Assembly: GCA_020847715.1 (NCBI GenBank)
Contig: JADLBM010000012.1
Span: forward strand, 1-56,534
Direction: 5' to 3'
DNA length: 56,534 bases
Source of the DNA: Candidatus Yanofskybacteria bacterium
GTDB taxonomy: Bacteria > Patescibacteriota > Minisyncoccia > 2-02-FULL-40-12 > GWA2-44-9
A program made the position numbers and the translations under genes. Below the pieces are notes generated by a model that worked only from the letters and a program-made list of their open reading frames with translations, did not search any database and was not told the DNA's origin. This document shows, piece by piece, positions 15,924 to 32,210 of the stretch (positions within the stretch are counted from its first letter, which is position 1; each line of letters starts with the position of its first letter).

Positions 15924-15949
15924 GAAAGCGGGCCGCGAGGCCCGCTTTC
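15924..15949 (-). terminator. Hairpin terminator at the end of the surface-protein operon
   Basis: GAAAGCGGGCC / GGCCCGCTTTC stem with a GCGA loop, 15 nt after the stop at 15964. Confidence 0.5.
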
Positions 15950-15963: not shown

Positions 15964-17982
15964 CTAACTCCGGAAGTCCATTGGATCGCGCCCGCTCGTG
16001 ATTGTTTCCACCTCGCGGCGCTTGAAGGAAGCCGAGCGCGTATACGACACATACAGGAGCGTCATAATCGCTGACACCAGAAGAGCCGCCAGAACGGCAT
16101 CGCCAGGCCCCGTCTGCACGGTGCCAACCTGGCCCACTGCTCGATTCACAAGAACCGTAACCTGCCCGGTCCGAGCGCCGACACCGTCTGCGGTCGCCTG
16201 CACGCTAATAATCGCCTGAGACTGTCCGGTGGGGAATGACGCGCTCTGTACCGACGCCCGGAATCGCACGACCGCCTCTTGGCCGGGGCCGAGGGCGCCA
16301 ACTGCGAGGCCTCCGGTTGTGACAGAATCAACGGACGAAGGAGTCCCGTTCACCGACGTTGAACCAGCAACATAGGCAAGACCGGATGGAAGCGCCGCCC
16401 GCACGACCGCATTCCTCACAATGTCGGCATTCGCGGGAGCACTCGACACTCGCGCAATCACTTCCACCTGTTGATTTCCGGTCACCGATACCGTAGCCGC
16501 CTCGGCGCTCCCCGTGGACGCGTTCCTACCAGAGACGGTAAACCCGATGTCTCCTCCGACAGGGGAGGTGGTAGCAACTTGAATGGCAACATTCGTGCTC
16601 ATCTGGCCGAACCAACCCACCAACCCTTGGTTCATTTGCCACTGGAAATTATATGTCCCGGGCTGGGTCGGAGCGGTAATCGAGAACACAAAGGTTGCAT
16701 CTTGTCCGGGTTGAATGGGAGCGCTCGGGATTGGCACAAATCCAATGCCCCACGTGGTGTTGTCTGCTGGATTTTGACTCTTGATGCGATAGGCGTTGCC
16801 GTAGTCTCCGGGACTCCCAATCTTGTCCCACGCCTTCGTTCCGGTGTTACGGAAGGTGAGCGTCACCTGTGCGGTCGCGCCCGGAGCCATCGTCGCCGGA
16901 ACATTCTGGGAAATAAACTGCGCGTTGTTTCCAGTCCCAGCAGGCGTAGCCGTTGCGGTAACAGTAGCGGTCGGGGTCGCCGTTGCCGTTGCAGTAGCTG
17001 TCGGGGTTGCTGTGGCGCCCCCACAGTTCACGCCATTCGTCGTTACAATATATGAATTTGTCGTTCGGGTATCCGGACGGTACTTCGCCCAGTACTCATA
17101 GGTTTTGTTTGCCTGCACCAGAGAGTCTACATACTCCCAGTATGCCCCCCTGTCTACCGGTACCAGCTCCTGCATCTGCGTAGTCACCCCATCAACGCGC
17201 TTGTTCATACCATTACTGTCGGGAGTCTGACTTCCAGGGGGAGGAAGCTTTGACCAGCGAAGCGTGATGCGTGGCGTTGCGCCGCCAGTGCAGAATCCCG
17301 CGATGGTCCCTGCCGCAGGCGCATTCACATCCGGCGTGCCAGTTGGCGACACCACCGGAGTCGGCGTGCCAGTTGTTGCACCAATAATCTTCGAGCAGGT
17401 CAACGATGTGTAGCCGCGAGACCCATCGATACACCGAGCGATATGCCCCCAGAATGTAGCTCCGCTCGCCGGAGGGGATGCACGGTGCTCTTGGAACCAA
17501 GAATCAGCAAATCCATCCGTGCGATTACACCAATCCGCTTCGGTCGTAGGAACCGTCGCCCAGCTCCACTTTGTGTAATCGTCAACATGTGCCGGATTCT
17601 CAGAGAAAAGCAGGTTGTGCTCCGTGTCGTATTTCGCACCTCCCGTCCGAACTGCATACGCAAGGCTGCCGAGGCGATTACACTTCGGCGGCTGATTCGG
17701 ACAAAAGACCGTGCCAAAACACCCCTGCTTCTGGGAGTCGAACTCGTACACGCCGCCTCCAGGAGCGGGGGACCATATCTGAACATATCCAGTCGGGATT
17801 GGCTCAGCAGCAAAAAAGCGACCAATCTCGAATGTAAAGCCGAGACGGGCCCAAACGATAAGCAAAATACTAAAGACCGTGATACCACCGAGCATAACTA
17901 CGCGGTTCGCTCGATAAAACACACCCACCGCACTCGCGTTCGCTGCAACACGGTCTCGAATCCGCTGGAATAATTCGTTCAT
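15964..17982 (-). CDS. Surface protein E: N-terminal anchor motif, FN3-like and NBR1-like Ig domains, DUF11 repeat, VQTGPGD sorting signal
   Basis: N-terminus ...LGFTFEIGRFFAAE. TA/TP linker. The F..Q.VP..M..G...W...PG.Y.FQWQM segment resembles an NBR1-type Ig domain. C-terminus VQTGPGD + TM + YTRS..KRRE...DFRS. Confidence 0.8.
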   Translation of the reverse strand: MNELFQRIRDRVAANASAVGVFYRANRVVMLGGITVFSILLIVWARLGFTFEIGRFFAAEPIPTGYVQIWSPAPGGGVYEFDSQKQGCFGTVFCPNQPPKCNRLGSLAYAVRTGGAKYDTEHNLLFSENPAHVDDYTKWSWATVPTTEADWCNRTDGFADSWFQEHRASPPASGATFWGHIARCIDGSRGYTSLTCSKIIGATTGTPTPVVSPTGTPDVNAPAAGTIAGFCTGGATPRITLRWSKLPPPGSQTPDSNGMNKRVDGVTTQMQELVPVDRGAYWEYVDSLVQANKTYEYWAKYRPDTRTTNSYIVTTNGVNCGGATATPTATATATATPTATVTATATPAGTGNNAQFISQNVPATMAPGATAQVTLTFRNTGTKAWDKIGSPGDYGNAYRIKSQNPADNTTWGIGFVPIPSAPIQPGQDATFVFSITAPTQPGTYNFQWQMNQGLVGWFGQMSTNVAIQVATTSPVGGDIGFTVSGRNASTGSAEAATVSVTGNQQVEVIARVSSAPANADIVRNAVVRAALPSGLAYVAGSTSVNGTPSSVDSVTTGGLAVGALGPGQEAVVRFRASVQSASFPTGQSQAIISVQATADGVGARTGQVTVLVNRAVGQVGTVQTGPGDAVLAALLVSAIMTLLYVSYTRSASFKRREVETITSGRDPMDFRS

Positions 17983-17985
17983 GGG

Positions 17986-20304
17986 TTAGCGCCGGAAGTC
18001 GAACAGATCCTTGTCGTCATGGGCGCCCTTCGCAAGCGCTCCCGCCTCGTGACGACGATACGCATCGGTGCTCGTGTATCCGACATATAACAAGGTAATA
18101 ATCGCGGAAACGATGAGCGCAAGAAGCGTTGACTCGCCGGGACCGGTCGGCACTTGTGTAACAGGAGTCGTCGGGGTTGTGATAATGACCGGAAGCTGTG
18201 CGGTAAGAGTTCCGATACCGTCTGCGCTCGCTTGGGCCGTGTTCAGCACCGTTGTAGTTCCCGCAGGAAGCTGGCTCGCCACCGCAACACGTGCGGAGAG
18301 AAGTACGGTGACCTCTTGGCCGACCGCAAGCGTCCCGAGACTGAGTCCACTACTCGTGAGACTGTCGGGGGCAGGGGAGCCATTCACACGCACCGAACCG
18401 GCCAGTGCGGTCATGCCCTGAGGCACGATATCGCGAAGAATCACATTTGTGAGCGGTGCATTCGAGGTGTTGCGGACTCGAAGAATGAATTCGACGGTCT
18501 CTGCCGGAGAGGCGTAGACCGGCGACGCCTCGCCAGTTTGGCCACGGCTCGTGTTCCGCCCCATCTTCACGAGTGACATGCTGAGATTCTGGGATGCGTT
18601 CACGACATTCACGAAAGCAACGTCGTTCACCTCAGAAACATTTGAACCGCGCGCGTATCCGGTGTTCGTCATGACGGTCGATCCCTGCGAGAAGAATCCT
18701 GCGGCCGCAACGGACGCGCGGAATCGAATGGTCACGGTCCTTCCAGATGCGAGATCGCCGAGATTCAGTCCCGATGCAACAATGCCGTCTGCGGCAGGCG
18801 CCCCATCAATGGTCGTCGAACCTGGGATATAGGTGAGCCCAGCGGGCAAACTATCACGAACCGTCGCGGATGTGACGGCGCCAACTCCGACCGAAGAGAC
18901 GCGCAAAGAGAACTCGACCGTGTCCGAGGGGTTTGCGTTAACAGAATCGGTCTCTCCGCTTCCCTGAGTAACATTCCGCACAAGTTTCTGAAGTGTCAGC
19001 GCGGGAGCAACAGGCGTTGGCGTCGCGCTCGCGGTAGGAGTTGGTGTTAGCGTAACGCTCGCGGTCGGCGTCGGGGTAGTCGAAGGTGTTGGGGTTGGCG
19101 CAGGATTCACCACGACGGTGCATGCGGCCATATTGCCGCCACTCGCGACAACAACCACTTTCGTTCCTGGCGTTGCGAATGTTACTGCGTAGGATGCTCC
19201 GGTCGCGCTGGATGACACGCCTCCGATTGTGTACCACGCATACATTCCAGTCCCACCGGAAGCAGTGGCGTGCGCCACCGCACCGGTCACCACCATTTGC
19301 GTCGTCGGAGAACAGACGACTGGCGGCAACACGCTTCCCGTGGGCGTAGGCGTCGGAGTTGCACTCGTCGTCGGGGTCGGTGTTATTGTGACGGTCGGCG
19401 TAGGAGTCGGAGATGGAGGAGTGCTTCGTGTCGGAGCAGGGGAGGTTGTTGGGGCAACGCAGTTTGTGCCGTAATCGATAACTGCACCGAGCGCAAGCCC
19501 GCCACCAGAATCGCGGCACTCACCGGTCGCTTCATTCTTGAAGCAACCATCGATCTGAACGCGTCCGCACGTATAGCGATTCGCGTTGTAAGTGACGGTA
19601 ACCTGATGATGGGACCCGGGAGCAAAGCTCGCGTTCGTCTTCCCGATATTCACCGCAGTCCCTGCTGTCGCAGAGCACCCTTTCGTATCGTTGTGGAAAC
19701 CATTCGCAACAACGGTGTAGGTATCGGTGCTTCGATTGTACACGTCCCACGTCTGAGACATGTCGCCGTTCGCGGGTCCCTGGCACGCCTCTGTTGTAAG
19801 ATTCCCGCCTACAACTTTCCAGCAGATGCCTCCGCCCCAGTCATTGTAGCCAGCAGGACACCCAACCGTCGTCGGGAGGCAGTCGTCATTTGAGGCGCAC
19901 TGATCATCCCCAGGGCCATTAATAATGACACAGGCATTATTGGCATTGCATTCGCTGTGCTGCTCAAGAACAGTCGTCGTCGGAGTTGGCGATGGAGCAC
20001 ACCCGCCGCCAACGCACGGATCGCCATCATTACAGTCTTCGCCGCCGACGTCAGGATTCAGAAATCCATCATCGTCACAATCGTGGTCCGGAAGACAGGT
20101 CCACTGTTCTGGAGGAAGAGGACAGGAGGTGCACCCCGGATCACCGACGGTGCATGCGAAGAAGCGGTTTACATCTAGCGTAAAACCAGCCCTCCACCAG
20201 AGATAACCGAACGTAGAGAGAACGATCAACCCCGCAACAAGGAAAAAGAGGCGGTTCGCCTTAAGGAATCCACCGAATCGTACAAAAAATCCTTGAGAAT
20301 CCAT
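17986..20304 (-). CDS. Surface protein D: N-terminal anchor motif, Cys/Asp-rich region, PT linkers, Cys-bounded module, three DUF11-like repeats, VPTGPGE sorting signal
   Basis: Start placed at ATG 20304, 2 nt after the upstream stop; the ORF track extends it to 20328. Motifs AGFTLDVNRFFAC and the C-terminus VPTGPGE + TM + YTST..YRRHE...DFRR. Confidence 0.8.
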   Translation of the reverse strand: MDSQGFFVRFGGFLKANRLFFLVAGLIVLSTFGYLWWRAGFTLDVNRFFACTVGDPGCTSCPLPPEQWTCLPDHDCDDDGFLNPDVGGEDCNDGDPCVGGGCAPSPTPTTTVLEQHSECNANNACVIINGPGDDQCASNDDCLPTTVGCPAGYNDWGGGICWKVVGGNLTTEACQGPANGDMSQTWDVYNRSTDTYTVVANGFHNDTKGCSATAGTAVNIGKTNASFAPGSHHQVTVTYNANRYTCGRVQIDGCFKNEATGECRDSGGGLALGAVIDYGTNCVAPTTSPAPTRSTPPSPTPTPTVTITPTPTTSATPTPTPTGSVLPPVVCSPTTQMVVTGAVAHATASGGTGMYAWYTIGGVSSSATGASYAVTFATPGTKVVVVASGGNMAACTVVVNPAPTPTPSTTPTPTASVTLTPTPTASATPTPVAPALTLQKLVRNVTQGSGETDSVNANPSDTVEFSLRVSSVGVGAVTSATVRDSLPAGLTYIPGSTTIDGAPAADGIVASGLNLGDLASGRTVTIRFRASVAAAGFFSQGSTVMTNTGYARGSNVSEVNDVAFVNVVNASQNLSMSLVKMGRNTSRGQTGEASPVYASPAETVEFILRVRNTSNAPLTNVILRDIVPQGMTALAGSVRVNGSPAPDSLTSSGLSLGTLAVGQEVTVLLSARVAVASQLPAGTTTVLNTAQASADGIGTLTAQLPVIITTPTTPVTQVPTGPGESTLLALIVSAIITLLYVGYTSTDAYRRHEAGALAKGAHDDKDLFDFRR

Positions 20305-20306
20305 TC

Positions 20307-20801
20307 TTATTGAACAATAACCGTACACACTGCGATATCTTTGGCGGTAGAACCGTCATTTCTCCCGCTCTGCACAAGAACCTTCTTGGTTCCAGTGGTG
20401 GTATAGCGAACCGCGAACTGCGCCCCCTGTCGGTTTGTGTCGGGTGCAGATGACTCCGGACCAAGCCACGTATAGATGCCGTCTCCTCCAGCCACGGTGA
20501 GGTTCGCAAGAACACCCACGGCGACTGTCTGGGTCGCGGGGGAGCAAGAAGCAACAGCTCGATTTGTTCCCGTGGGCGGACACCATCCTCCAGCGGGCTC
20601 TGCGATGTCGCACGGAGGAGTCGCGTCAAGACATGCCGGGCGCGTCTGGCATGCCGTCGTTGTTACAACATCAGCGGCAGGCTCTGCGGCAAAGAATTTC
20701 ATGAACTCAAGACTAAATCCCGAGTACCACCAGATGCTAATGGCGCCGACAACAAGCATCAGGACTCCTCCCAGAAGCATCTTTCGAACGGTGGCATTCA
20801 T
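20307..20801 (-). CDS. Small paralogue C: N-terminal anchor motif plus one Cys-bounded Ig-like module, no sorting signal
   Basis: MNATVRKMLLGGVLMLVVGAISIWWYSGFSLEFMKFFAAE, then the module CSPATQTV...AVCTVIV. 164 aa. Confidence 0.7.
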   Translation of the reverse strand: MNATVRKMLLGGVLMLVVGAISIWWYSGFSLEFMKFFAAEPAADVVTTTACQTRPACLDATPPCDIAEPAGGWCPPTGTNRAVASCSPATQTVAVGVLANLTVAGGDGIYTWLGPESSAPDTNRQGAQFAVRYTTTGTKKVLVQSGRNDGSTAKDIAVCTVIVQ

Positions 20802-20873
20802 ATACGCACGTGCAATCTCAGTTGATTATAGTACACCGCTTGAACACTTCACAGGGACATATCCACATTTTCT

Positions 20874-22571
20874 CTACGCGCGGAAGTCGAGTGGGCCCTG
20901 GTCCTCACTCGCTTTTGTCGCCTCGCGGCGACGATACAGCGGTGAGCGCGTGTATGCCGTGTAGAGCAGGGTGAGCGTCGCTGCAAACATAAGCGCCGCA
21001 ATAACCGCATCTCCGGGCCCTGTCTGCACGCCTCCCGCGCCGCCAACGACGCCTCCACCCGTGCCAGCTCCTCCCTGAGTTGAACCGTACACCGTGACGC
21101 TCGTATCGCCGATAACATCCGCCAGCTGTTGGGCGGTCGCCACGGCGCGCGGTCGGAACATCTGCGGCCCACTGGGAAGCAGGGAAGTCTGATCTGCAAG
21201 AGCAGACCATCGCACCGTGACGACATCTCCGGCCTCAAGGCGACCTAAGAATAGGCCCGAAGTGGTAATGGTATCGATGAGAACCGGCTGACCCTCGACG
21301 GTCGTCGAGCCCTGTCGGTATGACATGCCAGATGGGATCTCATCGCGAACCAGAAGGCCGCTCGTGGGTCCACCTCCACTGTTCGTGATTCGAATGACAA
21401 ATTCCACGATCTGCCCCGGATTCACAGTGACTGCGGTCCGCTCGCTCGGATCTCCCACCGAAAGATTCCGCGCATACTTCGCCACCGTAAGCGCGGCGCT
21501 ACCCGTTTGCGTCGTGTCGTCCGTCACTGTCACTGAGCATCGAGCACTCTGCGCTCCACTGCTGACTCGAACGTTTTTGACGCCGGTAGTCGCATATGTA
21601 ATCGACACGAATTCATTCCCACCTTCTTCAAGGAGTCCACCGCCCGTGATATCCCATTGGTATACGCCCGTACCGCCACTTGCCTGTAGAAGCGCTCTTC
21701 CGGAACGCTGCACAGTCTGCGTTGTAGGCGAACAAACGAGCGGAGGCGGGGGAGGGGTCGGAGCAGTTGAGATAGTTGTGCCGATAGGAGTCGTTGACGC
21801 GCCGCCGCACAACACAGTGTTCGAAACAATGCTAGGACTAAACTTCACGCGATACTGGTAGGTTCGTCCGGCCGCAGCCGAGACATCGGTGTACGTCCCA
21901 ATACCAAAGGTATTCCAGCATCCGCCCTCACTGAAAACATCGGTCCAGCTCCCTCCGTTGATATCCATGCGCTGAATAACGTTTTGCATCGCGCGACCCG
22001 ACAACGGGTTCGTCCAAGTCAGAACATTGACGGAACCACACTGGACCGCCAGCGCGGGCGTTGACGGAGTTCCCGCATATGCGGGGCATGAATCGCCGCC
22101 TCCACCCGCGCCGCCGCCATCACACCCAGACCCACCGGCACGCGGATCGCATACTCGGATACAGAAATCGTCTCCGAATGCTGTCCAGTTCTTCGGACAA
22201 TCTTGCGGCTTCTCAACGCACATCTTCGGATACCGCTCCCACACAACACCGCTGTCAGGCTCGGGCCTGCGGTCTGTCATGTACAGGAACTCTCCCGTAC
22301 CCGTTGTCCCCCTATATGTCGGTAGGCACCCTTCATCGAGCGCATAGTCGTACTCCGGCTCTCGATTGCACACGAAATCCGGCACCCAGCTTGGCGGCTG
22401 GCTTGCGCGTCCGGGACATCGCTCTTCAGCAGCGAAGAACCTCCCGATCTCCAACTGAAAACTTCCGTAGACACCCCATATCACAAGCACCATCGCCAGG
22501 ACGGCAGCAGTAACCACAATCCACGCCTGTGGACTTTCACGGAAGAGCCGGCGAATGACTTCCCAATCCAT
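20874..22571 (-). CDS. Surface protein B: N-terminal anchor motif, Cys-rich and FN3-like regions, Cys-bounded module, DUF11 repeat, VQTGPGD sorting signal
   Basis: GSFQLEIGRFFAAE, PPPPP linker, CSPTTQTV...ARCSVTV module. C-terminus VQTGPGD + TM + YTRS..YRRRE...LDFRA. Confidence 0.8.
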   Translation of the reverse strand: MDWEVIRRLFRESPQAWIVVTAAVLAMVLVIWGVYGSFQLEIGRFFAAEERCPGRASQPPSWVPDFVCNREPEYDYALDEGCLPTYRGTTGTGEFLYMTDRRPEPDSGVVWERYPKMCVEKPQDCPKNWTAFGDDFCIRVCDPRAGGSGCDGGGAGGGGDSCPAYAGTPSTPALAVQCGSVNVLTWTNPLSGRAMQNVIQRMDINGGSWTDVFSEGGCWNTFGIGTYTDVSAAAGRTYQYRVKFSPSIVSNTVLCGGASTTPIGTTISTAPTPPPPPLVCSPTTQTVQRSGRALLQASGGTGVYQWDITGGGLLEEGGNEFVSITYATTGVKNVRVSSGAQSARCSVTVTDDTTQTGSAALTVAKYARNLSVGDPSERTAVTVNPGQIVEFVIRITNSGGGPTSGLLVRDEIPSGMSYRQGSTTVEGQPVLIDTITTSGLFLGRLEAGDVVTVRWSALADQTSLLPSGPQMFRPRAVATAQQLADVIGDTSVTVYGSTQGGAGTGGGVVGGAGGVQTGPGDAVIAALMFAATLTLLYTAYTRSPLYRRREATKASEDQGPLDFRA

Positions 22572-22620: not shown

Positions 22621-23277
22621 TTACATCTGCACTTGCACCGCCTGGACGGCAATGCGCTTGTAATTTGTACCGACCGGATAGCAACTGATAAGCACAAGGC
22701 TACTGCCCAAAGCGTTCTCCATTTCGCTCAGACGGCTATCCTCTGAGAAAGGATTAAAAATGATTGCCTGCTTCATCTCATATACAAATGAACGATTATC
22801 CTCATACTGCACATAGAATCGATCTCCGGGTTTCAGGCGACTCAAGAGCGCGAACACCGCTCCATACTCTCCCTTATACCAAGGGTACGCTGAGCTGTGC
22901 CCAAGAATGACCGCCGCGCCGGGGTTTCCGGGTTTCGCGGTATCACTGTAGTGCACGACGCCATCTTCCAGACGCTTGTAGATGGCGTCGTTGTTGTTTG
23001 GCGCATTGAAAACGATAGGCGCGCGAACACCGATGCTGTCGATGACCAGCGTTGCCCGATCGGGTAGCGGTTTTGCCTGCACGGCACCCGCGAGCGGGAG
23101 GAGGCGAATGGCATCTCCAAGCGTGTCTCGAGTTCGGATTGTTCCGGGAGCTACAAGATACTGTGCGCTCTTTGCGACAAAACGAATATTCAGCAGCAGG
23201 AACGCCGCAGTGAATGTTACGGCGAAGATAAACACGAGCCGGAGCCAGATGGTTCGGTTCCGATTGTGAAGTCGCAT
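22621..23277 (-). CDS. Sortase family transpeptidase (218 aa)
   Basis: Start at ATG 23277 (MRLHNRN...) with an N-terminal TM. Catalytic His in AAVILGHSS, Cys in LVLISCYP, downstream Arg (NYKRIAV). Embedded among its presumed substrates. Confidence 0.85.
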   Translation of the reverse strand: MRLHNRNRTIWLRLVFIFAVTFTAAFLLLNIRFVAKSAQYLVAPGTIRTRDTLGDAIRLLPLAGAVQAKPLPDRATLVIDSIGVRAPIVFNAPNNNDAIYKRLEDGVVHYSDTAKPGNPGAAVILGHSSAYPWYKGEYGAVFALLSRLKPGDRFYVQYEDNRSFVYEMKQAIIFNPFSEDSRLSEMENALGSSLVLISCYPVGTNYKRIAVQAVQVQM

Positions 23278-23342
23278 GTCACCAGTATACCAAACAACAA
23301 CATCCCCGGTATGGGGATGTTGTTGTTTTCGGACACTCAGAC

Positions 23343-25049
23343 CTACTTGAGGAAGTTGAGTCCGGCAGACCGCGAGAGTCGTCCGACCTCCGCGAGTGCC
23401 GCGCGGCGACCGAAGGCCAGTGAGCGCGTGTACACGGCGTAGCCACCCGTCACCAATGCGGCGATGAGCAAGGCAAGCCACAGAGAGTCCGCGGGACCCG
23501 TCTGGACGCCTGATGCGTTCGTAATGCTCACATGCTGTCCGAGAGTAATCGGAAGCTGAGCAGACATCGTGCCAACCGTATCTGCTCGGACCTGCGCAGT
23601 CGCGTTGACTACCACCTGGCCCCACGAGGGGACGGATGCTTCGTCGACGCGAACCGACAGCTTAATTACCGTATCAGTAGAAGGCGAGAGCGTACCGACA
23701 GAGATACCAGCGCTCGTGATGCCGTCCGAAACCGCATACCCATTCAGTGTTGTCGAGCCTGCAATGTAGTTCACGCCGCTCGGGAGAAGCTCCGTCACGA
23801 ACGCGTTGTACAATGACGAGCCATTCATTGAGCGAACACGAAGGATGAGGTCGAGCGTGTCTCCGCCACGGGCGCGAACGCTTGCGTTCTCACCACTCTG
23901 CCCGCGCGAGACGTTGCGTCCGGTCTGGCGCAGATCGAGTCGTGCATTCGGATCGGTGTACGGGTACGCCGTCGGCGTCGGGGTCCACGCGCTACCATTC
24001 AGGACGAGCGTGGTAGTTCGAGCCTGCATATTCGCGTTCTCTGCAGTCACGGTCACTGAGTTGTAGAGCGACTGCCAGTTCGTGTATGCGGCATCAACAG
24101 TCGCATCGAACTTCACGATATAAGTGCGGTTCGCGGTCAGCGTACCGAGGCTCAGACCGCCGTTTGTGATGCCGTCGGTGTACCACGTTCCGTCGATATT
24201 CGTAGTTCCAGACAGGTAGCGAACGAACGAGGGGAGTGCGTCCGTGATGCGAACGTTGGTGAGCTGATAGGCACCGGTCGTGATGCGCGCAATGAACTGC
24301 ACGCGATCGCTCCCGTAGACATTCACCGAAGAACCCTCTCCTCCGCGCGTAACATTCCGGACGGTGTGGTCAACCGCAAGTGAGCCATACGGATACGCGG
24401 TCGGCGTCGGAGTCCAGTAGGTGGAGCCGTACACATTCACCGCGCACGAAGCCGACTGACCGGCGCTCGTGACCGTGACCGTACGATTCACCGTTGTGGA
24501 GCCATAGTTGTAGAAACGAGTCGAGAAGACGGAACCCCAACCGGACGACGGGTTGCCGTCAGTCGTGGTCCAGTAGTAGGAACCGTTACCACCCCATGCA
24601 TTCAGAGAGACCACATCACCCGAGGTGACACTCGAGTACGACGGTGCGCACTGCAGGGTCGTCCATGGGGTCGGCGTCGGGGTCCAGGTGTACGTCGGCG
24701 TAGCGCCATACACATACACCGTGCACGCGGCGGTCTGGTAACCGTCAGAAACGGTTACCGTGCGCGTCTCCGAACCGGTCACATAGAACCGGGTACCAAA
24801 TGTCGCACCATACCCATAACTCGGATTTCCACCAACCGCAGACCATGTCAGCTGGTTCGTAGTGTTCGAGGAATAGGCAGTAAAGCTCACGAAATCTCCG
24901 CTCGAAACGGACTGAACGGACGGCGCACACTGCAGGGAACCGTACCACTGCGTGGACTGCGCCTGGGCATCAACGACACCAAAGGCGCCACCGACCGAGG
25001 ACGCCAGAAGGGCCGTGAAAAGCCCGAAAATCAAGGCTTTCTTGGACAT
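23343..25049 (-). CDS. Surface protein A: classical signal peptide, two Cys-bounded modules, two DUF11-like repeats, VQTGPAD sorting signal
   Basis: Signal peptide MSKKALIFGLFTALLASSVGGAFGVVDAQA. Two LQCAPS...C.V.VYG modules. C-terminus VQTGPAD + TM + YTRS..FGRR...LNFLK. Confidence 0.8.
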   Translation of the reverse strand: MSKKALIFGLFTALLASSVGGAFGVVDAQAQSTQWYGSLQCAPSVQSVSSGDFVSFTAYSSNTTNQLTWSAVGGNPSYGYGATFGTRFYVTGSETRTVTVSDGYQTAACTVYVYGATPTYTWTPTPTPWTTLQCAPSYSSVTSGDVVSLNAWGGNGSYYWTTTDGNPSSGWGSVFSTRFYNYGSTTVNRTVTVTSAGQSASCAVNVYGSTYWTPTPTAYPYGSLAVDHTVRNVTRGGEGSSVNVYGSDRVQFIARITTGAYQLTNVRITDALPSFVRYLSGTTNIDGTWYTDGITNGGLSLGTLTANRTYIVKFDATVDAAYTNWQSLYNSVTVTAENANMQARTTTLVLNGSAWTPTPTAYPYTDPNARLDLRQTGRNVSRGQSGENASVRARGGDTLDLILRVRSMNGSSLYNAFVTELLPSGVNYIAGSTTLNGYAVSDGITSAGISVGTLSPSTDTVIKLSVRVDEASVPSWGQVVVNATAQVRADTVGTMSAQLPITLGQHVSITNASGVQTGPADSLWLALLIAALVTGGYAVYTRSLAFGRRAALAEVGRLSRSAGLNFLK

Positions 25050-25104: not shown

Positions 25105-25134
25105 ATTATACCATTCTAAATGGCAGAAAGTCAA
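25105..25134 (-). promoter_or_regulatory. Sigma70-like promoter of the surface-protein/sortase operon
   Basis: On the minus strand: TTGACT (25129-25134), 18-nt spacer ending TGg, TATAAT (25105-25110). Confidence 0.55.
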
Positions 25135-25333: not shown

Positions 25334-25405
25334 GCTCTCGTCGTTCAATGGATAGGACGCAAGCTTGCGGAGCTTGTAATGTAGGTTCGATTCCTACCGA
25401 GAGCA
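25334..25405 (+). tRNA. tRNA-Arg (anticodon GCG by manual fold), no encoded CCA
   Basis: Cloverleaf: acceptor GCTCTCG/CGAGAGC, D stem GTTC/GGAC, anticodon stem CAAGC/GCTTG with loop TTGCGGA, T arm GTAGG-TTCGATT-CCTAC. Confidence 0.8.
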
Positions 25406-25443
25406 CAAAAACAAATGGCCCCCTTGCGGGGCCTTTTGTTTTT
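25406..25443 (+). terminator. Rho-independent (bidirectional-looking) terminator
   Basis: GGCCCC/GGGGCC stem extended by an AAAAACAAA/TTTGTTTTT A/T-rich tract. Confidence 0.7.
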
Positions 25444-25452
25444 CATGCTTGA

Positions 25453-25614
25453 GGTAGGAATCGAACGGGGAGAAGCGGAGCGAGGCCCGGCCAAGTATGG
25501 GCGGGCCGATGTGAGCGCCAGTCGCATATCCGGTGGATATGCGACTGCTCCCCAGTACAACGAAGGCTCACCGCGACGGCGGGGAGCTGAGGCGAAATTC
25601 CTACCGAGAGTGCA
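25453..25614 (+). ncRNA. tRNA-Arg-linked satellite element (structured, about 162 nt)
   Basis: It starts with GGTAGGAATCGAAC, the reverse complement of tRNA 25385-25398. Near its 3' end, 25597-25610 (ATTCCTACCGAGAG) is a direct copy of tRNA 25390-25403. The ends pair (9 bp). Inside is a perfect 11-bp hairpin at 25520-25546. Transcription is unproven. Confidence 0.5.
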
Positions 25615-25630
25615 GGGTGATTCCTACCCT

Positions 25631-26206
25631 CTACGGCCTCCGAATGAAGACATCGAGAAGGGGGGTCGGATGCTCGCTTTCCACTATATACTGTGACAAC
25701 ACTGCGCGGATTTCCTGAGGGTCCTGCTCTCCCAGCGGAAGACGTAGTGTCGGGATGTGCCATCGCCGCGTCTGGAGGCTGAGCTCAACGGTATCGTCCG
25801 GCATTCGATGGATATCGAACGAGGCGAGATCGGCGTGAGCAATGCGTCGTCCATCAATCTCGACGCCGCGGCCGTCCACAGCTACGCTCACCGGCCTGCT
25901 GAGTCGCTCTCGAATCTCCCATGTTGCGGCGCCCAAAAGCGTGACGATCATGACTGCCACACTCGACTGCCACCACGCGACCGCACCCCCGATGAACACG
26001 AGCGTCGCCATGAGCATGTAGTGGCGCTGCCATGCACGCCCCTGAAGGGGATGGTGCGCTTCCCATGCAATTGCCTGTGCAGCGAATTCGTTGAATGACG
26101 GGGGTACAGCATCCGCGGAAACCACTTCCGGCGTCATCACATCCGCAGTTGTAGATTCGTCGACACTAACAGGTTCCGGATTCTTGAGGTCAAGCACGTT
26201 GCTCAT
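25631..26206 (-). CDS. Hypothetical two-TM membrane protein (191 aa)
   Basis: Acidic N-terminus, a TM pair (MLMATLVFIGGAVAWW / VAVMIVTLLGAATW), and a soluble C-terminal domain. No motif recognised. Confidence 0.55.
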   Translation of the reverse strand: MSNVLDLKNPEPVSVDESTTADVMTPEVVSADAVPPSFNEFAAQAIAWEAHHPLQGRAWQRHYMLMATLVFIGGAVAWWQSSVAVMIVTLLGAATWEIRERLSRPVSVAVDGRGVEIDGRRIAHADLASFDIHRMPDDTVELSLQTRRWHIPTLRLPLGEQDPQEIRAVLSQYIVESEHPTPLLDVFIRRP

Positions 26207-26243
26207 GCGGGTAGTATACCATCATTTTTCTACGCCCCAGCTC

Positions 26244-26495
26244 CTACCGATGAGGGCAGCCGGCCCAGCAGCACGGTCGCCGCATGCCTTTGCGCATCTT
26301 ATCGAGACCGACTGCAATGCGCCGCTCACGTGTTTTCGATTGCTTCGCGGAAGTCACCCAGCAGATCCATTCGTTGCGAGCCAGCGGAGTGATATCTGCC
26401 CACACGCTCCGAGCTTTCGAATCCGATTCGATCGCTGCGCGGAGGTCCGGCGGCGCCCTATGTACTGCGCCGTTTTTTGTATTCGTCTTTTTCAT
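26244..26495 (-). CDS. YdeI/OmpD-associated family protein (83 aa)
   Basis: Start at ATG 26495 (MKKTNTK...). The pattern PPDLRAAI....VWADITPLARNEWICWVTSAKQSKTRERRI is typical of the YdeI-type domain. Confidence 0.65.
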   Translation of the reverse strand: MKKTNTKNGAVHRAPPDLRAAIESDSKARSVWADITPLARNEWICWVTSAKQSKTRERRIAVGLDKMRKGMRRPCCWAGCPHR

Positions 26496-26511
26496 AAAGA
26501 ATGCGCGCTCT

Positions 26512-26635
26512 TGGCGGTGGGAGTAGGATTCACCCGCCACTCTCGGCGCGTCCGTCGGCGCGCCTCGGTTCTGGGCTCCAGCCCTCGCGGTCGCCCCTTC
26601 TGGCGCGACAGCGCTCCGGGCTTCGAATCCTACGC
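26512..26635 (-). ncRNA. tRNA-Ser(UGA)-linked satellite element (about 124 nt)
   Basis: Its 5' end GTAGGATTCGAA is an inverted copy of the T-arm. Its 3' end is a 20-nt direct copy of the tRNA 3' end including CCA (26512-26531 equals 26685-26704). It shares a 33-nt core with 27002-27035. Confidence 0.55.
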
Positions 26636-26647
26636 TCCAGCTATAGT

Positions 26648-26683
26648 ATCACCCCAGACTGCCACATGGCAGTCTGGGGTGAT
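26648..26683 (-). terminator. 17-bp perfect inverted repeat immediately 3' of tRNA-Ser(UGA)
   Basis: ATCACCCCAGACTGCCA-CA-TGGCAGTCTGGGGTGAT. No clear U-tract, so it may be a processing or termination hairpin. Confidence 0.4.
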
Positions 26684-26684
26684 A

Positions 26685-26774
26685 TGGCGGTGGGAGTAGG
26701 ATTCGAACCTACGGTACGGTTTCCCGTACAGCGGTTTTCAAGACCGCCGCTTTAGACCACTCAGCCATCCCACC
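26685..26774 (-). tRNA. tRNA-Ser (anticodon UGA), type II with long variable arm, CCA encoded
   Basis: Acceptor GGTGGGA/TCCCACC, anticodon stem GCGGT/ACCGC with loop CTTGAAA, T arm GTAGG-TTCGAAT-CCTAC, ends GCCA. Confidence 0.85.
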
Positions 26775-26797
26775 CAATGCGCCAGTGTATCGTGAAA

Positions 26798-26826
26798 TTG
26801 CCAATAACTCAAGAAAATGCTATATT
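26798..26826 (+). promoter_or_regulatory. Sigma70-like promoter for tRNA-Ser(CGA)
   Basis: TTGCCA (26798-26803), 17-nt spacer ending TGc, TATATT (26821-26826). A divergent TTGAGT-17-TACACT can be read on the other strand for tRNA-Ser(UGA). Confidence 0.5.
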
Positions 26827-26843
26827 ATTCCCGCTCCACTCCC

Positions 26844-26930
26844 GGAAGCGTGGCTGAGTGGTTGAAGGCACCACACTCGAAATGTGGCATAGGGGTAACC
26901 CTATCGGAGGTTCGAATCCTCCCGCTTCCG
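26844..26930 (+). tRNA. tRNA-Ser (anticodon CGA), type II, CCA not encoded (ends GCAA)
   Basis: Acceptor GGAAGCG/CGCTTCC, anticodon stem CCACA/TGTGG with loop CTCGAAA, long variable arm, T arm GGAGG-TTCGAAT-CCTCC. Confidence 0.85.
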
Positions 26931-26934
26931 CAAT

Positions 26935-26970
26935 ACCAAAACGGATTGCCGTGTGGTAACCCGTTTTGGT
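26935..26970 (+). terminator. 10-bp hairpin 3' of tRNA-Ser(CGA)
   Basis: ACCAAAACGG / CCGTTTTGGT with a 16-nt loop. The U-tract lies inside the stem only. Confidence 0.4.
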
Positions 26971-26984
26971 GCCGTCGTCGAAAA

Positions 26985-27104
26985 GGGAGGATTCGAAGGA
27001 CGGAGCGATGTCGCGCCAGAAGGGGCGACCGCGAGTCCGTGGTCAGCCCGAGGGTTGTCGACGGACAACCCAAGAGGCGAGACCGAATCCTCCCGCTTCC
27101 GCCA
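26985..27104 (+). ncRNA. tRNA-Ser(CGA)-linked satellite element (120 nt)
   Basis: GGGAGGATTCGAA (26985-26997) is the reverse complement of tRNA 26911-26923. 27084-27102 is a 19-nt direct copy of tRNA 26913-26931, and the element continues 2 nt further to end GCCA (27104). There is an 11-bp closing stem plus two internal hairpins. Confidence 0.55.
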
Positions 27105-27125
27105 GGATTCAGAAAGAGAGGAATC

Positions 27126-27317
27126 GTGACAACGCTACTGCTGGACGACTTGGACGACGACACGCGCCGGCGACTCACCGAGCGCAAGCGGTACTCGTGT
27201 GCACACTGCCAGTACCGGTGGGAGATTCCCGCGCTCCAGAGCTCGACCGAGTGCCCGTCATGCGGCGGCCACTGGATCGTCTTCGACACCGCGCCGGATA
27301 GCCAGCGGGACCCGTGA
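27126..27317 (+). CDS. Small zinc-ribbon protein (63 aa, GTG start)
   Basis: AGAGAGGA SD then GTG. Acidic N-terminus, then CAHC...(16 aa)...CPSC. The stop codon sits in the terminator loop. Confidence 0.5.
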   Translation: MTTLLLDDLDDDTRRRLTERKRYSCAHCQYRWEIPALQSSTECPSCGGHWIVFDTAPDSQRDP

Positions 27318-27332
27318 GGGTCCCGTTTTCTT
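27307..27332 (+). terminator. Rho-independent terminator shared by convergent genes
   Basis: GGGACCC-GTGA-GGGTCCC followed by GTTTTCTT. Confidence 0.7.
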
Positions 27333-28059
27333 AGTAGTAGAGCTCTTTGCGAGGAGGGGAGGCTTTGATGATATCAAATGCCTCCTGCGCAGTATCGACG
27401 AGGTGGTAAAGCTGCATGTCTTCCTTATCGATGGCGCGATATTTCTCGTACACCATGTCGTTGATATAGGAGAGGAGCGGTGTCCAGAATTCTTTGCCAA
27501 CAAGAATGAGCGGAACCGTTTCGCGGTCGACCTTCTTGGTCTGAACCAGCGTCACCATCTCGAAGAACTCGTCGAGCGTCCCGAAGCCGCCGGGGAAAAA
27601 CACGTACGCCTGCGCCGTGTAGAACAGCATCACCTTGCGTACAAAGAAATAGTAGAAGGGCTGCTTCTTGGTGAGGTAGGGGTTCTCCCGCTGCTCGAAC
27701 GGAAGCTTGATGTTGATGCCAATACTTTCGCCACCCGCCTCGAATGCGCCACGGTTGCCACCCTCCATAATGCCCGGCCCGCCACCGGTCACGACGCCAA
27801 TCTTCGCCTTTGCCAGCAACGCACCGAGCTCACGGGCAACTTGGTACCATTTATTACTCTCTTCGAACCGTGCGGAACCGAGAATAGAAATCGTGTTCTT
27901 GTAGTCCGTGACAAACTGCCACCCATCAACGAACTCCGCCATGATGCGGAACACGCGCCAGTGAAAACTGGAGCGGAAGTCGAGCGGCATCTCCTGCGTC
28001 TGCTCCCAGGGGAGCTTGGATGCGGGAACATTGAGTGAGCCTTTTGGATCGTCTCCCAT
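27331..28059 (-). CDS. LOG family protein (TIGR00730-type nucleotide phosphoribohydrolase)
   Basis: Start at ATG 28059 with a GGAGGG SD. Motifs GGGPGIMEGGNRGA and PGGFGTLDEFFE. The ORF-track extension to 28359 runs across two tRNA genes and is not coding. Confidence 0.85.
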   Translation of the reverse strand: MGDDPKGSLNVPASKLPWEQTQEMPLDFRSSFHWRVFRIMAEFVDGWQFVTDYKNTISILGSARFEESNKWYQVARELGALLAKAKIGVVTGGGPGIMEGGNRGAFEAGGESIGINIKLPFEQRENPYLTKKQPFYYFFVRKVMLFYTAQAYVFFPGGFGTLDEFFEMVTLVQTKKVDRETVPLILVGKEFWTPLLSYINDMVYEKYRAIDKEDMQLYHLVDTAQEAFDIIKASPPRKELYY

Positions 28060-28073
28060 TCCCTCCAGTATAT

Positions 28074-28100
28074 CACAGCACCGCCGATGGCGGTGCTGTG
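28074..28100 (-). other. 12-bp perfect hairpin between tRNA-Ala(GGC) and the LOG SD
   Basis: CACAGCACCGCC-GAT-GGCGGTGCTGTG with no U-tract. Possibly a processing site or a partial terminator. Confidence 0.4.
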
Positions 28101-28103
28101 TAG

Positions 28104-28179
28104 TGGTGGACCCAACCGGACTCGAACCGGTCACCTCATCCATGCCATGGATGCGCTCTACCAGATGAGCTATGGGCCC
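28104..28179 (-). tRNA. tRNA-Ala (anticodon GGC), CCA encoded
   Basis: Acceptor GGGCCCA/TGGGTCC with G3:U70, anticodon stem CATCC/GGATG with loop ATGGCAT, ends ACCA. Confidence 0.85.
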
Positions 28180-28230
28180 AAGGCGTCTGGAAAAATAGCA
28201 CGAAAATGGTAGTATCGCAAGGTATTGCCT

Positions 28231-28302
28231 GCCCCCGTAGCTCAACGGATAGAGCAAATTCGTCCTAAGAATGAGATGGGGGTTCGATTCCCTCCGGGGG
28301 CA
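28231..28302 (+). tRNA. tRNA-Arg (anticodon CCU), no CCA
   Basis: Acceptor GCCCCCG/CGGGGGC, D stem GCTC/GAGC, anticodon loop GTCCTAA, T loop TTCGATT. Confidence 0.8.
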
Positions 28303-28388
28303 CACACCTGACCACTCCTCATACTGCAGGAAGTGGCCGGCCAAGTGTCCTGAGCGCATAGACGCGAAGGACTACAGAAAAAATACTT

Positions 28389-29825
28389 ATGCTGGAAATC
28401 CATCCGAAGGTAGGGGAGGTCCTACGGACACTCGAGGAGAACGGCCACCGCGCATATGCGGTGGGTGGCTGCGTGCGCGACATCATGATGGAGCGACATC
28501 CAACCGATTGGGATGTCACCACCGACGCTCGCCCCGAGCGCATCCAAGAGCTGTTCCCCGATAACTTTTACGACAACGCATTTGGAACTGTCACCGTGAA
28601 GACGCGCGACGACGACCCCATCGTGCGCACCATTCAGATTACCCCGTTCCGCATCGAAGGACGGTACACCGACCAGCGGCACCCCGACGAGGTCACATTC
28701 GCGAAAACAATCGAAGAAGACCTCTCGCGCCGTGACTTCACCGTGAACGCAATGGCGATGAGTGCTGACGGGACACTGGTTGACCCCTACGGCGGACGAG
28801 ACGACCTCTCCGCAAAAATAATCCGCGCGGTCGGGGATGCCGATACTCGCATCACGGAAGATGCGCTCCGCATGATGCGCGCGGTTCGATTCGCGACCAC
28901 GCTCGATTTCAGCATTCACGACGACACTCTGCGGGCGCTCACGCGCCACGCCGCACTGCTCGAGCGCATCTCGGCAGAGCGCATTCGCGATGAACTCACA
29001 AAGATCCTGAATGCTCCGCGCGCAATGCATGGCATCCAACTCCTCGAAGATACCGGCCTCCTCCGGTTCATCCTTCCGGAGTTGCGCGAGGGCGTAGGAG
29101 TCGAGCAGAACCTCCACCACATCTACACGGTGTGGGAGCATAATTTGCGCACCATGCACTACGCTGCGCAGAAGGGATATTCATTCCCCGTGCGAATGGC
29201 GTGCCTCCTCCATGATGTGGGGAAGCCGCGCACCAAGCGGGGAGAGGGCCGCCACTGCACGTTCTACGCACACGATGCCGTGGGTGCCACGATGGCTCGA
29301 AAGATCATGGAGCGCCTCAAATACCCCGGCGAGACCGTCGATGCGGTCGTGCGCTTGGTTCGTTACCATATGTTCTACTACAGTGTTGGCGAAGTCACCG
29401 AGTCCTCGGTTCGCCGCCTCATCGCGAACGTCGGGCTCGAACACATTGACGACCTCCTCAGGCTCCGCGAGGGAGATCGCATCGGCTCCGGAACGCCCAA
29501 GGCGGTACCCTATAAACTCCGCCACCTCAAGTACATGATCGACAAGGTCAGCCATGACCCCATTTCAGTAAAGATGCTCAAGGTGAACGGGCAGGATATT
29601 ATGGAAGTCCTCGGAATTCCGCCCGGGCCGAAGATTGGCCTCATCCTCAACACGCTCCTCGCCGAGGCACTCGACGATCCGACCATCAACACCCGCGAGC
29701 TCCTCTTAAAGCGAGCGGGAGAGCTTGATGCGGCATCCGCTGCCGACCTCAAAAGCGCGCTTGAACGCATCGAACAGGCTCGGGATTCGGAAGAGAAGGA
29801 GCGGATGAAGAAATACTACGTGTAA
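28389..29825 (+). CDS. cca: CCA-adding enzyme (tRNA nucleotidyltransferase with HD domain)
   Basis: The GGCVRD motif (AVGGCVRDIMM), RRDFTVNAMA, and HD region LLHDVGKP. 478 aa. Confidence 0.9.
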   Translation: MLEIHPKVGEVLRTLEENGHRAYAVGGCVRDIMMERHPTDWDVTTDARPERIQELFPDNFYDNAFGTVTVKTRDDDPIVRTIQITPFRIEGRYTDQRHPDEVTFAKTIEEDLSRRDFTVNAMAMSADGTLVDPYGGRDDLSAKIIRAVGDADTRITEDALRMMRAVRFATTLDFSIHDDTLRALTRHAALLERISAERIRDELTKILNAPRAMHGIQLLEDTGLLRFILPELREGVGVEQNLHHIYTVWEHNLRTMHYAAQKGYSFPVRMACLLHDVGKPRTKRGEGRHCTFYAHDAVGATMARKIMERLKYPGETVDAVVRLVRYHMFYYSVGEVTESSVRRLIANVGLEHIDDLLRLREGDRIGSGTPKAVPYKLRHLKYMIDKVSHDPISVKMLKVNGQDIMEVLGIPPGPKIGLILNTLLAEALDDPTINTRELLLKRAGELDAASAADLKSALERIEQARDSEEKERMKKYYV

Positions 29826-29854
29826 CCAAAAGACCTCTCGGAGGGGTCTTTTGG
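29826..29854 (+). terminator. Rho-independent terminator of cca
   Basis: CCAAAAGACC-TCTCGGAG-GGGTCTTTTGG starts directly after the stop. Confidence 0.7.
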
Positions 29855-29859
29855 TATCT

Positions 29860-29979
29860 GTCGGGCTGCTGGGAATCCCGTACGCGTCAAACCTCGCCGT
29901 CGCTCGGTTCGCGCTTCCGGCCGGGGCTCGCGGCGCCTCCTACTGTCGACGTATCGCTCCGCCCTTCGCTTCCCGGCAG
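29860..29979 (-). ncRNA. tRNA-Pro-linked satellite element (120 nt, more degenerate)
   Basis: 18-nt direct copy of the tRNA-Pro 3' part (29860-29877 equals 30031-30048). Degenerate inverted T-arm CTGCCGGGAAGCGAA. Shares the core ...CGAAG-GGGC-GGAGCGAT...CGCGAG-CCC with the Ser elements. Confidence 0.45.
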
Positions 29980-29993
29980 GCAATCTGCGCGCA

Positions 29994-30024
29994 ACAAAAA
30001 GACCCCACTGCGGGGTCTTTTTGT
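29994..30024 (-). terminator. Rho-independent terminator after tRNA-Pro
   Basis: AAAAAGACCCC-GCAG-GGGGTCTTTTT on the minus strand. Confidence 0.7.
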
Positions 30025-30031
30025 TTATGGG

Positions 30032-30102
30032 TCGGGCTGCTGGGAATCGAACCCAGTCTTTATGAACCCGAATCATACGTACTACCGGTATACTACAGCC
30101 CG
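30032..30102 (-). tRNA. tRNA-Pro (anticodon CGG), no CCA
   Basis: C1:G72 acceptor CGGGCTG/CAGCCCG with A73, anticodon stem TATGA/TCATA with loop TTCGGGT, T arm CTGGG-TTCGATT-CCCAG. Confidence 0.8.
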
Positions 30103-30146
30103 CACCGCTACGATGCGAACTCGACAATACCACAGAAATACCAGAA

Positions 30147-31249: not shown

Positions 31250-31338
31250 AGTATATGACGCACAATACCTTCACGTCTTACCGAAGGCAACGCCAGAGAG
31301 CGGAGTACTCCGCTCTCTGGCGTATGCGCGTATCGCTC

Positions 31339-32031: not shown

Positions 32032-32137
32032 GCGTATAGTATATACAATACTGCGTACACCAAGTATGACGGCTCCACGGAAGATTCCTTACGCCTCTGG
32101 CAAAAACCGGCGTTTTATGGTATGTTTCCTCCGATTT

Positions 32138-32210
32138 GGGCCCATAGCTCAGCTGGTAGAGCGCGTCATTCGCATTGACGAGGTCAGGAGTTCGAATCTC
32201 CTTGGGTCCA
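32138..32210 (+). tRNA. tRNA-Ala (anticodon CGC), no CCA
   Basis: Acceptor GGGCCCA/TGGGTCC with G3:U70, anticodon stem CGTCA/TGACG with loop TTCGCAT. Confidence 0.85.

Follow-up and report, generated by a model that had tools for sequence, protein, structure and literature searches.

Why do four consecutive proteins of a sortase operon share a nearly identical segment immediately behind their first hydrophobic helix? The question arises from a 56,534-nt stretch of DNA from Candidatus Yanofskybacteria (contig JADLBM010000012.1; hereafter the window), in which genes B, C, D and E lie downstream of gene A and a sortase gene. Bacteria of the Candidate Phyla Radiation (CPR), or Patescibacteria, are ultrasmall, and their cultivated members all live attached to other microbes (PMC11623550). 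Our findings show that these four proteins share a genuine N-terminal leader that is under strong selection, had not been described before and goes with a core sortase locus in a clade of Patescibacteria. Neither the motif nor the locus was found described in the literature on Patescibacteria and Parcubacteria sortases or under the motif strings, and the leader matched nothing in the family libraries searched.

Results

The six genes are tightly packed on the minus strand, from 25049 down to 15964, in the order A, sortase, B, C, D, E (table 1). The N-termini of B to E are built alike: a basic segment, a hydrophobic run of 18-24 residues, an aromatic belt and then G-F-[ST]-[LF]-[ED]-x-x-[RK]-F-F-A, the motif reading SFQLEIGRFFAAE in B, GFSLEFMKFFAAE in C, GFTLDVNRFFACT in D and GFTFEIGRFFAAE in E. 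An earlier interpretation made from the letters of the window (the sequence-only reading) had described the four open reading frames (ORFs) and their N-termini in this manner; re-read, they are exactly so, with the motif in all four. Its wording of the motif suits C, D and E, but in B a Ser precedes the Phe and the Gly lies one position further upstream. Across the six frames of the 56.5-kb window, the core pattern F-x-[LFIVM]-[DENQ]-[IVLFM]-x-[RKQ]-F-[FY]-A is matched only at these four sites; in the called ORFs, 2e-4 matches are expected by chance versus the 4 observed, and 2000 shuffles gave 0. The shared motif residues use different codons among the four genes (6/10 between B and E), and thus the conservation operates at the protein level and does not stem from recent duplication or gene conversion.

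A four-sequence leader alignment retrieved no match from an index of 5.8 billion proteins, such a word index being blind to a 45-residue query, and a full HMMER scan was therefore needed. A leader profile of 44 positions, built from 15 leaders and run against 1.84 billion representative proteins, recovered 105 representative clusters (50% identity) at E<=1e-3, and 25 at E<=1e-10, nearly all matching at residues 1-65; three of the 105 (P0126, P0143 and P0149) are false positive or doubtful. The matches sort into four orthologous leader types, corresponding to B, C, D and E. Rather than being confined to four paralogues, the outcome that would have spoken against the sequence-only reading, the motif occurs in some 100 clusters of Patescibacteria proteins. 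The association with a sortase, which that reading had proposed to seek with a hidden Markov model (HMM) of the motif, is borne out as well: the leaders recur in a syntenic sortase locus, whose gene order A-sortase-B-(C)-D-E-recG is kept among loci, also on two contigs that measure 0.56 and 0.65 Mb. Gene C is absent from loci L033, L042, L069 and L015, and the composition is altered in L020. Among the relatives of E, the same leader is found on many proteins with differing ectodomains; the closest public ones, 92% and 77% identical to E, are annotated as Candidatus Yanofskybacteria, which places the window in a CPR bacterium of the Parcubacteria/Paceibacteria type. For protein C, an exact-sequence look-up gave no record.

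The back-translated motif was also scanned against one genome for each of 185,579 GTDB species, which gave 77 loci. Twenty matches fall in 10 Patescibacteria loci, all N-terminal and all behind a transmembrane (TM) helix. Outside Patescibacteria, no true leader is present among the scan matches: most are an internal TM segment, GFSF[DE]FVNFFAA, of one Enterobacteriaceae permease-like protein, probably an ABC-type permease as judged by eye from its sequence, and the others are a few conserved internal segments (for example in Spirochaetales/Sphaerochaeta and myxobacteria) or isolated matches without a preceding TM helix, some of them broken by stops. The enterobacterial match (L001-L077 Enterobacteriaceae loci) is coincidental and was inherited across genera.

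One family carries the leader away from the sortase locus. A variant, Y-F-[DG]-[LV]-[DN]-x-x-R-F-F-A-A-E, occurs on GH5-like enzymes that have no sorting signal and are encoded beside housekeeping genes (L078 106-2652, P0036; L079 4198-6024, P0031; L086; L092), the leader of these carriers reading Y-F-D-V-D-F-S-R-F-F-A-A-E. They contain an NBR1-type immunoglobulin (Ig) domain and adjoin dnaK/grpE/hrcA or groES/groEL, outside the sortase locus. A metagenome scan for leaders lacking the Gly at -1 returned 13 loci, of which 2 are real, both from this GH5-like family; a general leader for many cargoes was therefore rejected. Being the sole extra carrier, the GH5-like family makes the leader almost, not entirely, specific to the sortase locus.

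Three further observations concern the relatives. First, P0039 has a precomputed Pfam match, PF27854. Second, three contigs from metagenome-assembled genomes labelled "uncultured Candidatus Saccharibacteria" (L025, L069 and L071) carry the same locus. In L025 the RecG encoded after E is 67% identical to that of the window, and the stretches of L069 and L071 stop before recG, their relationship being visible from sortases 70% and 78% identical; the labels probably misplace all three, whose true placement is near Paceibacteria/Yanofskybacteria. Third, in L033, L042 and L093, paralogues of one genome (D and E, or B and D) are near-identical just past the leader, for example ..FFAASPGPTVVINSSLPIKYGQTL in both; recombination at the leader junction may have swapped the N-terminal passenger cassettes between them. 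The B to E proteins of the window display no such sharing behind the leader.

The consensus of 112 leaders reads W-[WA]-[RYQ]-x-G-F-[TS]-[LF]-[EDQ]-[FIV]-[SMGN]-[RKQ]-F-F-A-[A]-[E]-[P], with several positions constrained beforehand by the regular expression that anchored the alignment. HMM matches missed by that expression carry the Ala too, and no true leader inspected lacks this first Ala. Over the 17 residues around the motif, pairwise identity is 66-77% within a type and 41-56% between types; the corresponding values for the TM core are 27-53% and 11-17%, and the remainder of the protein is 16-36% identical within a type. When 30 C-type proteins are aligned, the leader holds 7 of the 11 invariant columns that follow the start Met. 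The basic N-terminal segment spans 7-27 residues in B to E and up to ~70 in relatives. Numbered from the invariant Ala as -1, the leaders have Ala at this position in all cases, Phe (106) or Ser (6) at -3, and S/G/N at -5 in 82/112, where E has a predicted helix break; +1 is A/S/G in 100/112, +2 is often Glu or Asp and +3 often Pro, after which conservation collapses. The leaders without the Phe pair (P0022, P0074, P0077, P0110, P0138, P0152, P0021 and the B-type leader of L069) read S-S-A, S-F-A, S-Q-A or, in P0021, A-P-A, all of them canonical -3/-1 sites.

AlphaFold2 models point to a helical leader. For C, modelled from a 30-sequence alignment with a mean pLDDT of 86, one helix (3-38) comprises the TM and the motif up to F-F-A; in the first 100 residues of E, a cytoplasmic helix (2-25) is followed by a second one (27-53) that runs through G-F-T-F-E-I, a break at Gly54 and a short turn at F-F-A. 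The models thus predict that the motif continues the membrane helix and ends at the invariant Ala. An amphipathic helix lying on the membrane surface was rejected, the hydrophobic moment (0.17-0.32) not exceeding that of shuffles because hydrophobic side chains occur all round the motif helix. An amphipathic beta strand, considered for the F-T-F-E-I alternation, was rejected likewise: both AlphaFold2 models have a helix here, with an even lower moment at 170 degrees. The C model, compared by Foldseek, gave generic Ig/PKD-like matches only.

How does the leader compare with known signals? The sequence-only reading had regarded the motif as prepilin-like. Type IV pilins begin G|F-T-L-I-E, with Glu at +5 and the string ahead of the hydrophobic helix, and prepilin peptidase is active at the cytoplasmic face. 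In the leaders, Gly precedes Phe in 107/112 and [TS]-[LF]-[EDQ] follows, a likeness that the wide occurrence of type IV pilus genes in CPR bacteria (PMC6744442) makes worth considering. Counted as in pilins, +4 is acidic or Gln (E 41, D 34 and Q 26 among the 112 leaders), but +5, the position of the pilin Glu, is F/I/V/L in 110/112. In all four proteins and all relatives the motif stands behind the helix and hence, by the positive-inside rule, outside the membrane. Searched in isolation against Pfam and NCBIfam, the leaders matched no prepilin (N_methyl, TIGR02532), YSIRK, SipW-cognate, Tat or other signal model even at E<=10; no YSIRK motif is visible by eye in B to E, and the window contains no class III signal. 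No prepilin peptidase gene was found in the loci, and a scan of the larger window ORFs revealed neither a prepilin peptidase (A24) nor a signal peptidase. The prepilin-like reading thus fails, and the suggested co-occurrence with a prepilin peptidase is not seen within these loci and ORFs. The leader does have a Sec-type layout, with a basic n-region, one hydrophobic run and a polar [ED]-x-x-[RK]-F-F-A, and equally that of a type II signal anchor, with a single N-terminal TM helix of ~20 residues and positive charges on its N-side. In cleaved Sec signal peptides the h-region has about 7-15 residues and the cut follows it by 3-7 residues. The candidate cut site of the leader lies 7 residues past the uncharged run in types B and C, with Arg46 coming earlier in type E, and the run is of anchor-like length. 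Protein A, on the other hand, has the ordinary Sec signal peptide that had been attributed to it, with a predicted cut at ..VVDAQA|QS.

At the other end, A, B, D and E carry [V][QP]TGP[GA][DE] followed by a TM and an R-rich tail, and with a sortase gene adjacent they are predicted substrates; C has no such signal. Three leader-bearing proteins, B, D and E, therefore combine both ends, just as the sequence-only reading had counted. The sorting signal reads [VI]-x-T-G-P-[GA]-[DE], not LPXTG, and its TM is highly conserved (..TLLY[VT][SAG]YT[RHS]..). Ordinary sorting signals have a short basic tail only, unlike the tail of 21 residues at this locus, which is near-fixed (10/10 B-type and 27/31 E-type relatives) and ends in [ML]-D-F-R-[SN], in F-D-F-K-R in type D and in L-N-F-x-K in type A.

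The sortase matched 833 clusters, and for the best 119 besides the window protein identity is 63-80% and the length is 218 aa in almost every case. The TM anchor of the sortase shows a conserved pattern, R-L-x-x-I-F-x-x-T-F-x-x-A-F-x-L-L-N, with a Phe at every fourth residue. The NCBIfam model TIGR01076 is matched above cut-off, and no class A-F model reaches its cut-off (class C, 35 bits vs 160). In the literature searched, sortase is reported only as a CPR-enriched family (PMC6744442). A docking motif R-F-[FV]-A shared with the sortase anchor was considered and rejected as a general feature: it is present in the window (N-I-R-F-V-A) and in L033 but in no more than a minority of the orthologues, the wider family having R-F-V-Glu-Lys, with Glu in 29/35. 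A pilin-motif lysine fared no better, YPK occurring once, in B, and being kept only in the close relative P0072 and in 0/10 other B-type relatives checked. Judged by sequence, CnaA/CnaB-type stalk domains would be represented by DUF11/CLIPPER in A, B and D, and weakly in E. With no conserved pilin-motif lysine and a sortase below every class-specific cut-off, the locus is not a pilus operon in the Gram-positive sense.

Genes and Other Features of the Window

The start of D is most likely the ATG at 20304 (MDSQ..), 2 nt past the C stop, rather than the GTG at 20328. The hairpin between A and the sortase gene is a possible attenuator; it could reduce read-through, so that A would be made in excess over the leader-bearing proteins. 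The hairpin directly after the E stop is the likely end of the operon.

Table 1. Positions of the genes, leaders, sorting signals and regulatory candidates of the sortase operon in the window (nt, window positions; aa, protein residues)
Feature	Position (nt)	Strand	Residues (aa)	Description
Promoter-like site upstream of A	25105..25134	-		TTGACT-18-TATAAT with TG; 11/12 matches, a sigma-70 consensus match only; 56 nt 5' of the gene A ATG
Gene A	23343..25049	-		Sec signal peptide, two PKD-like Ig domains, two DUF11/CLIPPER domains, sorting signal
A sorting signal	23507..23346	-	515-568	VQTGPAD + TM
RNA hairpin between A and sortase gene	23293..23327	-		14-bp stem, -32.4 kcal/mol, z = -5.4
Sortase gene	22621..23277	-	218 in total	N-terminal TM anchor; Pfam Sortase 2.6e-20; between A and B
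Gene B	20874..22571	-	565 in total	Cys-rich region, FN3-like, PKD-like and DUF11 domains
B leader	22571..22428	-	1-48	Motif 22463..22425; invariant Ala47
B sorting signal	21029..20877	-	515-565	
Gene C	20307..20801	-	164 in total	Linker with 4 Cys, one Ig/PKD-like domain; without sorting signal
C leader	20801..20685	-	1-39	Motif 20720..20682; invariant Ala38
Gene D	17986..20304	-	772 in total, from ATG 20304	Cys-rich region, PKD-like domain, two DUF11/CLIPPER domains
D leader	20304..20152	-	1-51	Motif 20187..20149; invariant Ala50
D sorting signal	18153..17989	-	718-772	VPTGPGES
Gene E	15964..17982	-	672 in total	FN3-like, NBR1-type Ig and DUF11-like (weak) domains; start 3 nt past D stop
E leader	17982..17806	-	1-59	Motif 17841..17803; invariant Ala58
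E sorting signal	16119..15967	-	622-672	
Hairpin directly after E stop	15924..15949	-		12-bp; -28.8 kcal/mol, z = -4.0

Seven tRNA genes (Arg x2, Ser x2, Ala x2, Pro) are spread over both strands at 25334..32211, just before the operon begins. A plus-strand cluster at 35043..45384 comprises a VirB4/TraG-like ATPase (41425..43167) and several large proteins that match no family and have canonical signal peptides or an N-terminal TM; the cluster may encode a system resembling type IV secretion or conjugation. Further along, yidC (45861..46532) is followed by 47478..48866 and 49095..50186, taken by eye from their N-termini as dnaA and dnaN, and the cumulative GC skew has its minimum at ~46-48 kb; 45861..50186 is probably the replication origin region. 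The G+C content of the window is 50-62%, mostly 55-60%, a value that is high for a CPR genome.

Discussion

What does the leader do? We tentatively favor, at somewhat less than even chances, an extended Sec-type leader of this lineage that tethers precursors next to the sortase before being cut off behind the invariant Ala. The basic segment and the helix of 18-24 residues would first place the protein N-in, as the positive-inside rule and the Cys-rich passenger domains suggest. In the models, the helix would then pass through the aromatic belt W-[WA]-x-x-G-F into the motif and end at a turn residue, followed by [RK]-F-F-Ala. The leader would hold the precursor in the membrane, B, D and E being held as well by the equally conserved TM of the sorting signal, close to the membrane-anchored sortase, whose own TM is unusually conserved and which, by homology, would cut [VI]-x-T|G-P. 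Finally, and this is the least certain step, signal peptidase I or some other peptidase would clip behind the invariant Ala (FFA|A-E-P), at a rate that the Phe at -3 might keep low, and would free the variable N-terminal domain of apparent CLIPPER-stalked, wall-anchored adhesins. In E, the tryptic peptide across the candidate cut site is FFAAEPIPTGYVQIWSPAPGGGVYEFDSQK, and the sequence just past the invariant Ala reads AEPIPTGYVQIW.

Both the site and the cargo speak for clipping. The site has the invariant Ala, S/G/N at -5 in most leaders, a small residue at +1 and an abrupt end of conservation soon after, and the S-x-A and A-x-A variants, together with the invariant Ala, make cleavage there plausible; the objection of the sequence-only reading that F-F-A breaks the -3 rule is true for 95% of the leaders, but the variants without the Phe pair fit the rule. 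The cargo, in turn, has the layout of a fibrillar adhesin, in which a variable and Cys-rich N-terminal part is carried by a DUF11/CLIPPER stalk next to the sorting signal, and such a layout needs a free distal N-terminus. CLIPPER domains have a CnaA-like fold and belong to fibrillar adhesin architecture (PMC12617251). Conservation of the leader does not show retention, since the TM and tail of the sorting signal, by definition removed by the sortase, are just as conserved (64-74% identity within a type).

Several observations weigh against this account. The Phe that occupies -3 in nearly all leaders violates the rule for signal peptidase I, and the Ser or Ala found there in the others goes back to only a few independent events. 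Elsewhere in the window, the signal peptides of exported proteins end in A-x-A (AQA|Q in A; ALA|D at 31339..32031; AHA|E at 37624..39960). The uncharged hydrophobic run has the length of a signal anchor, the helix of the C model is unbroken across the candidate site, and no peptidase gene was found inside the conserved locus or less than 10 kb away. Last, the TM cores are type-specific (45-53% identity within B, D and E; 11-17% between types) and the sortase TM is conserved too, which points to specific helix packing in the membrane and fits a lasting complex at least as well.

It is possible, then, if on the whole doubtful, that the leader is a permanent signal anchor with a stalk helix, the TMs and extensions of B to E packing with the sortase TM into such a lasting membrane complex; the N-termini of B, D and E would stay fixed in the membrane, and once the sortase has acted their C-termini would be attached to the wall or to a partner. 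Besides the length of the h-region, the Phe residues at -3 and -2, the continuous helix of C and the type-specific TM cores, this explanation draws on the long, conserved cytoplasmic N-terminal segments (predicted to be helical over 2-25 in E, and extended to ~70 residues in some relatives), on the invariant F-x3-F-x3-F stripe of the sortase TM and on the hydrophobic residues all round the motif helix, which suit burial in a bundle more than exposure at the membrane surface. It would nonetheless hold the variable N-terminal domains at the membrane under the wall, the opposite of known sortase-anchored adhesins. Moreover, several lineages have turned F-F-A into a cleavable S-x-A or A-x-A and kept the gene, a fixed four-part complex is not obligatory given the loci that lack C or differ in composition, and the sorting-signal TM, although removed, is conserved to the same degree.

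A bolder variant of clipping is improbable in our view: the leader would be an N-terminal sorting signal, the mirror of the C-terminal one, whose GF..RFFA helix the sortase complex or a partner peptidase would recognise and cut after the Ala, A, B/D/E and C being joined head to tail into a covalent fibre. If true, this would be a sortase polymer built without a pilin-motif lysine. Its chemical core, in which the cut exposes Ala-Glu as the sortase nucleophile and the C-terminal Thr is joined to the next N-terminus, seems to us very unlikely. The gene set does fit donors and acceptors, A having the sorting signal only, B, D and E both ends and C the leader only; +1 is a small residue in 89% of leaders, no YPK lysine is conserved, and sortases take N-terminal Gly or Ala amines in vitro. 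However, the proposal is purely inferential, with no natural precedent known, the chain would lose its link to the cell if C were cleaved, and the GH5-like enzymes carry the leader with neither a sorting signal nor a sortase neighbor.

There is equally slight reason to believe that the motif is a relic of the common ancestor of B to E, with no function beyond that of a generic anchor or signal. Nearly all of the ~100 matches do belong to the four orthologous types of this locus, and the scan for Gly-less leaders added one family only; yet the motif is the best-conserved part of the B to E proteins, it has been kept through synonymous change and across orthologues with ectodomains less than 40% identical, and drift of the kind that separates the TM cores of different types would be expected of a generic TM or signal. 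That prepilin peptidase cuts the leader at G|F, as an inverted class III (prepilin-type) signal, is hardly credible, for beyond the hydrophobic +5, the absent HMM match and peptidase gene and a motif on the outer face, away from the active site, such a cut would leave the F-F-A block on the mature protein without a hydrophobic helix.

Whichever fate awaits it, the leader is a searchable signature that marks sortase clients, and the sortase locus stands out as a core block of ~9 kb whose synteny extends to contigs no larger than 0.56-0.65 Mb. The leader may represent a new class of export, docking or processing signal, joining prepilin, lipobox, Tat, YSIRK, ESPR and SipW-cognate signals. Phe at -3 by an invariant Ala offers a test case for the specificity of signal peptidase. 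A retained leader would make its carriers the first sortase substrates with a tether at each end; if a non-canonical activity cuts it, a processing enzyme is yet to be found in protease-poor genomes.

Compared with known systems, the leader shares with type IV prepilins a short G-F-[TS]-L-acidic string by a single N-terminal helix and an N-terminus common to adjacent genes, as in minor pilins. It differs in that the helix comes first, in the acidic residue at +4 and not +5, in the outer-face position without an HMM match, in the extra R-F-F-A block and in its cargo, large proteins with sortase signals instead of pilins. SipW-cognate signal peptides (TasA/CalY class) are cut by a dedicated signal peptidase and have a conserved motif around the cut site of surface-structure proteins; their motif sequences differ from the leader, which matches no NCBIfam model of this class at E<=10 and has no signal peptidase gene in its locus. 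Uncleaved type II signal anchors, including that of the sortase itself, resemble it in the single N-in TM of ~20 residues and the lack of a canonical -3/-1 site, although ordinary ones have no conserved extra-membrane motif ending in an invariant Ala. The C-terminal sorting signal (LPXTG, TM and basic tail) is its mirror image (basic segment, TM and motif), found on the same proteins and equally conserved; the leader, however, is N-terminal, has no T-G dipeptide, is also carried by C and the GH5-like enzymes, which lack a sorting signal, and gives no sign of recognition by the sortase. The YSIRK/GS and ESPR leaders, finally, are likewise long (38-59 residues here), family-specific, found on adhesin-like proteins and conserved beyond the needs of export, and most carriers here have a sortase signal as well, as in YSIRK/GS proteins. 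Their motif belongs to the n-region or the beginning of the h-region, and they end in A-x-A, whereas here it follows the helix and ends in F-F-A, with a putative cleavage. The sequence-only reading had proposed a family-specific leader that is YSIRK-like in concept; the ~100 clusters, the syntenic locus, a conservation exceeding that of the ectodomains and the lack of a match to YSIRK or any other known signal model support a family-specific leader, and the comparison is reasonable. Overall, by analogy, the leader appears to work most like these extended, family-specific signal peptides of adhesins, while being a member of neither class.

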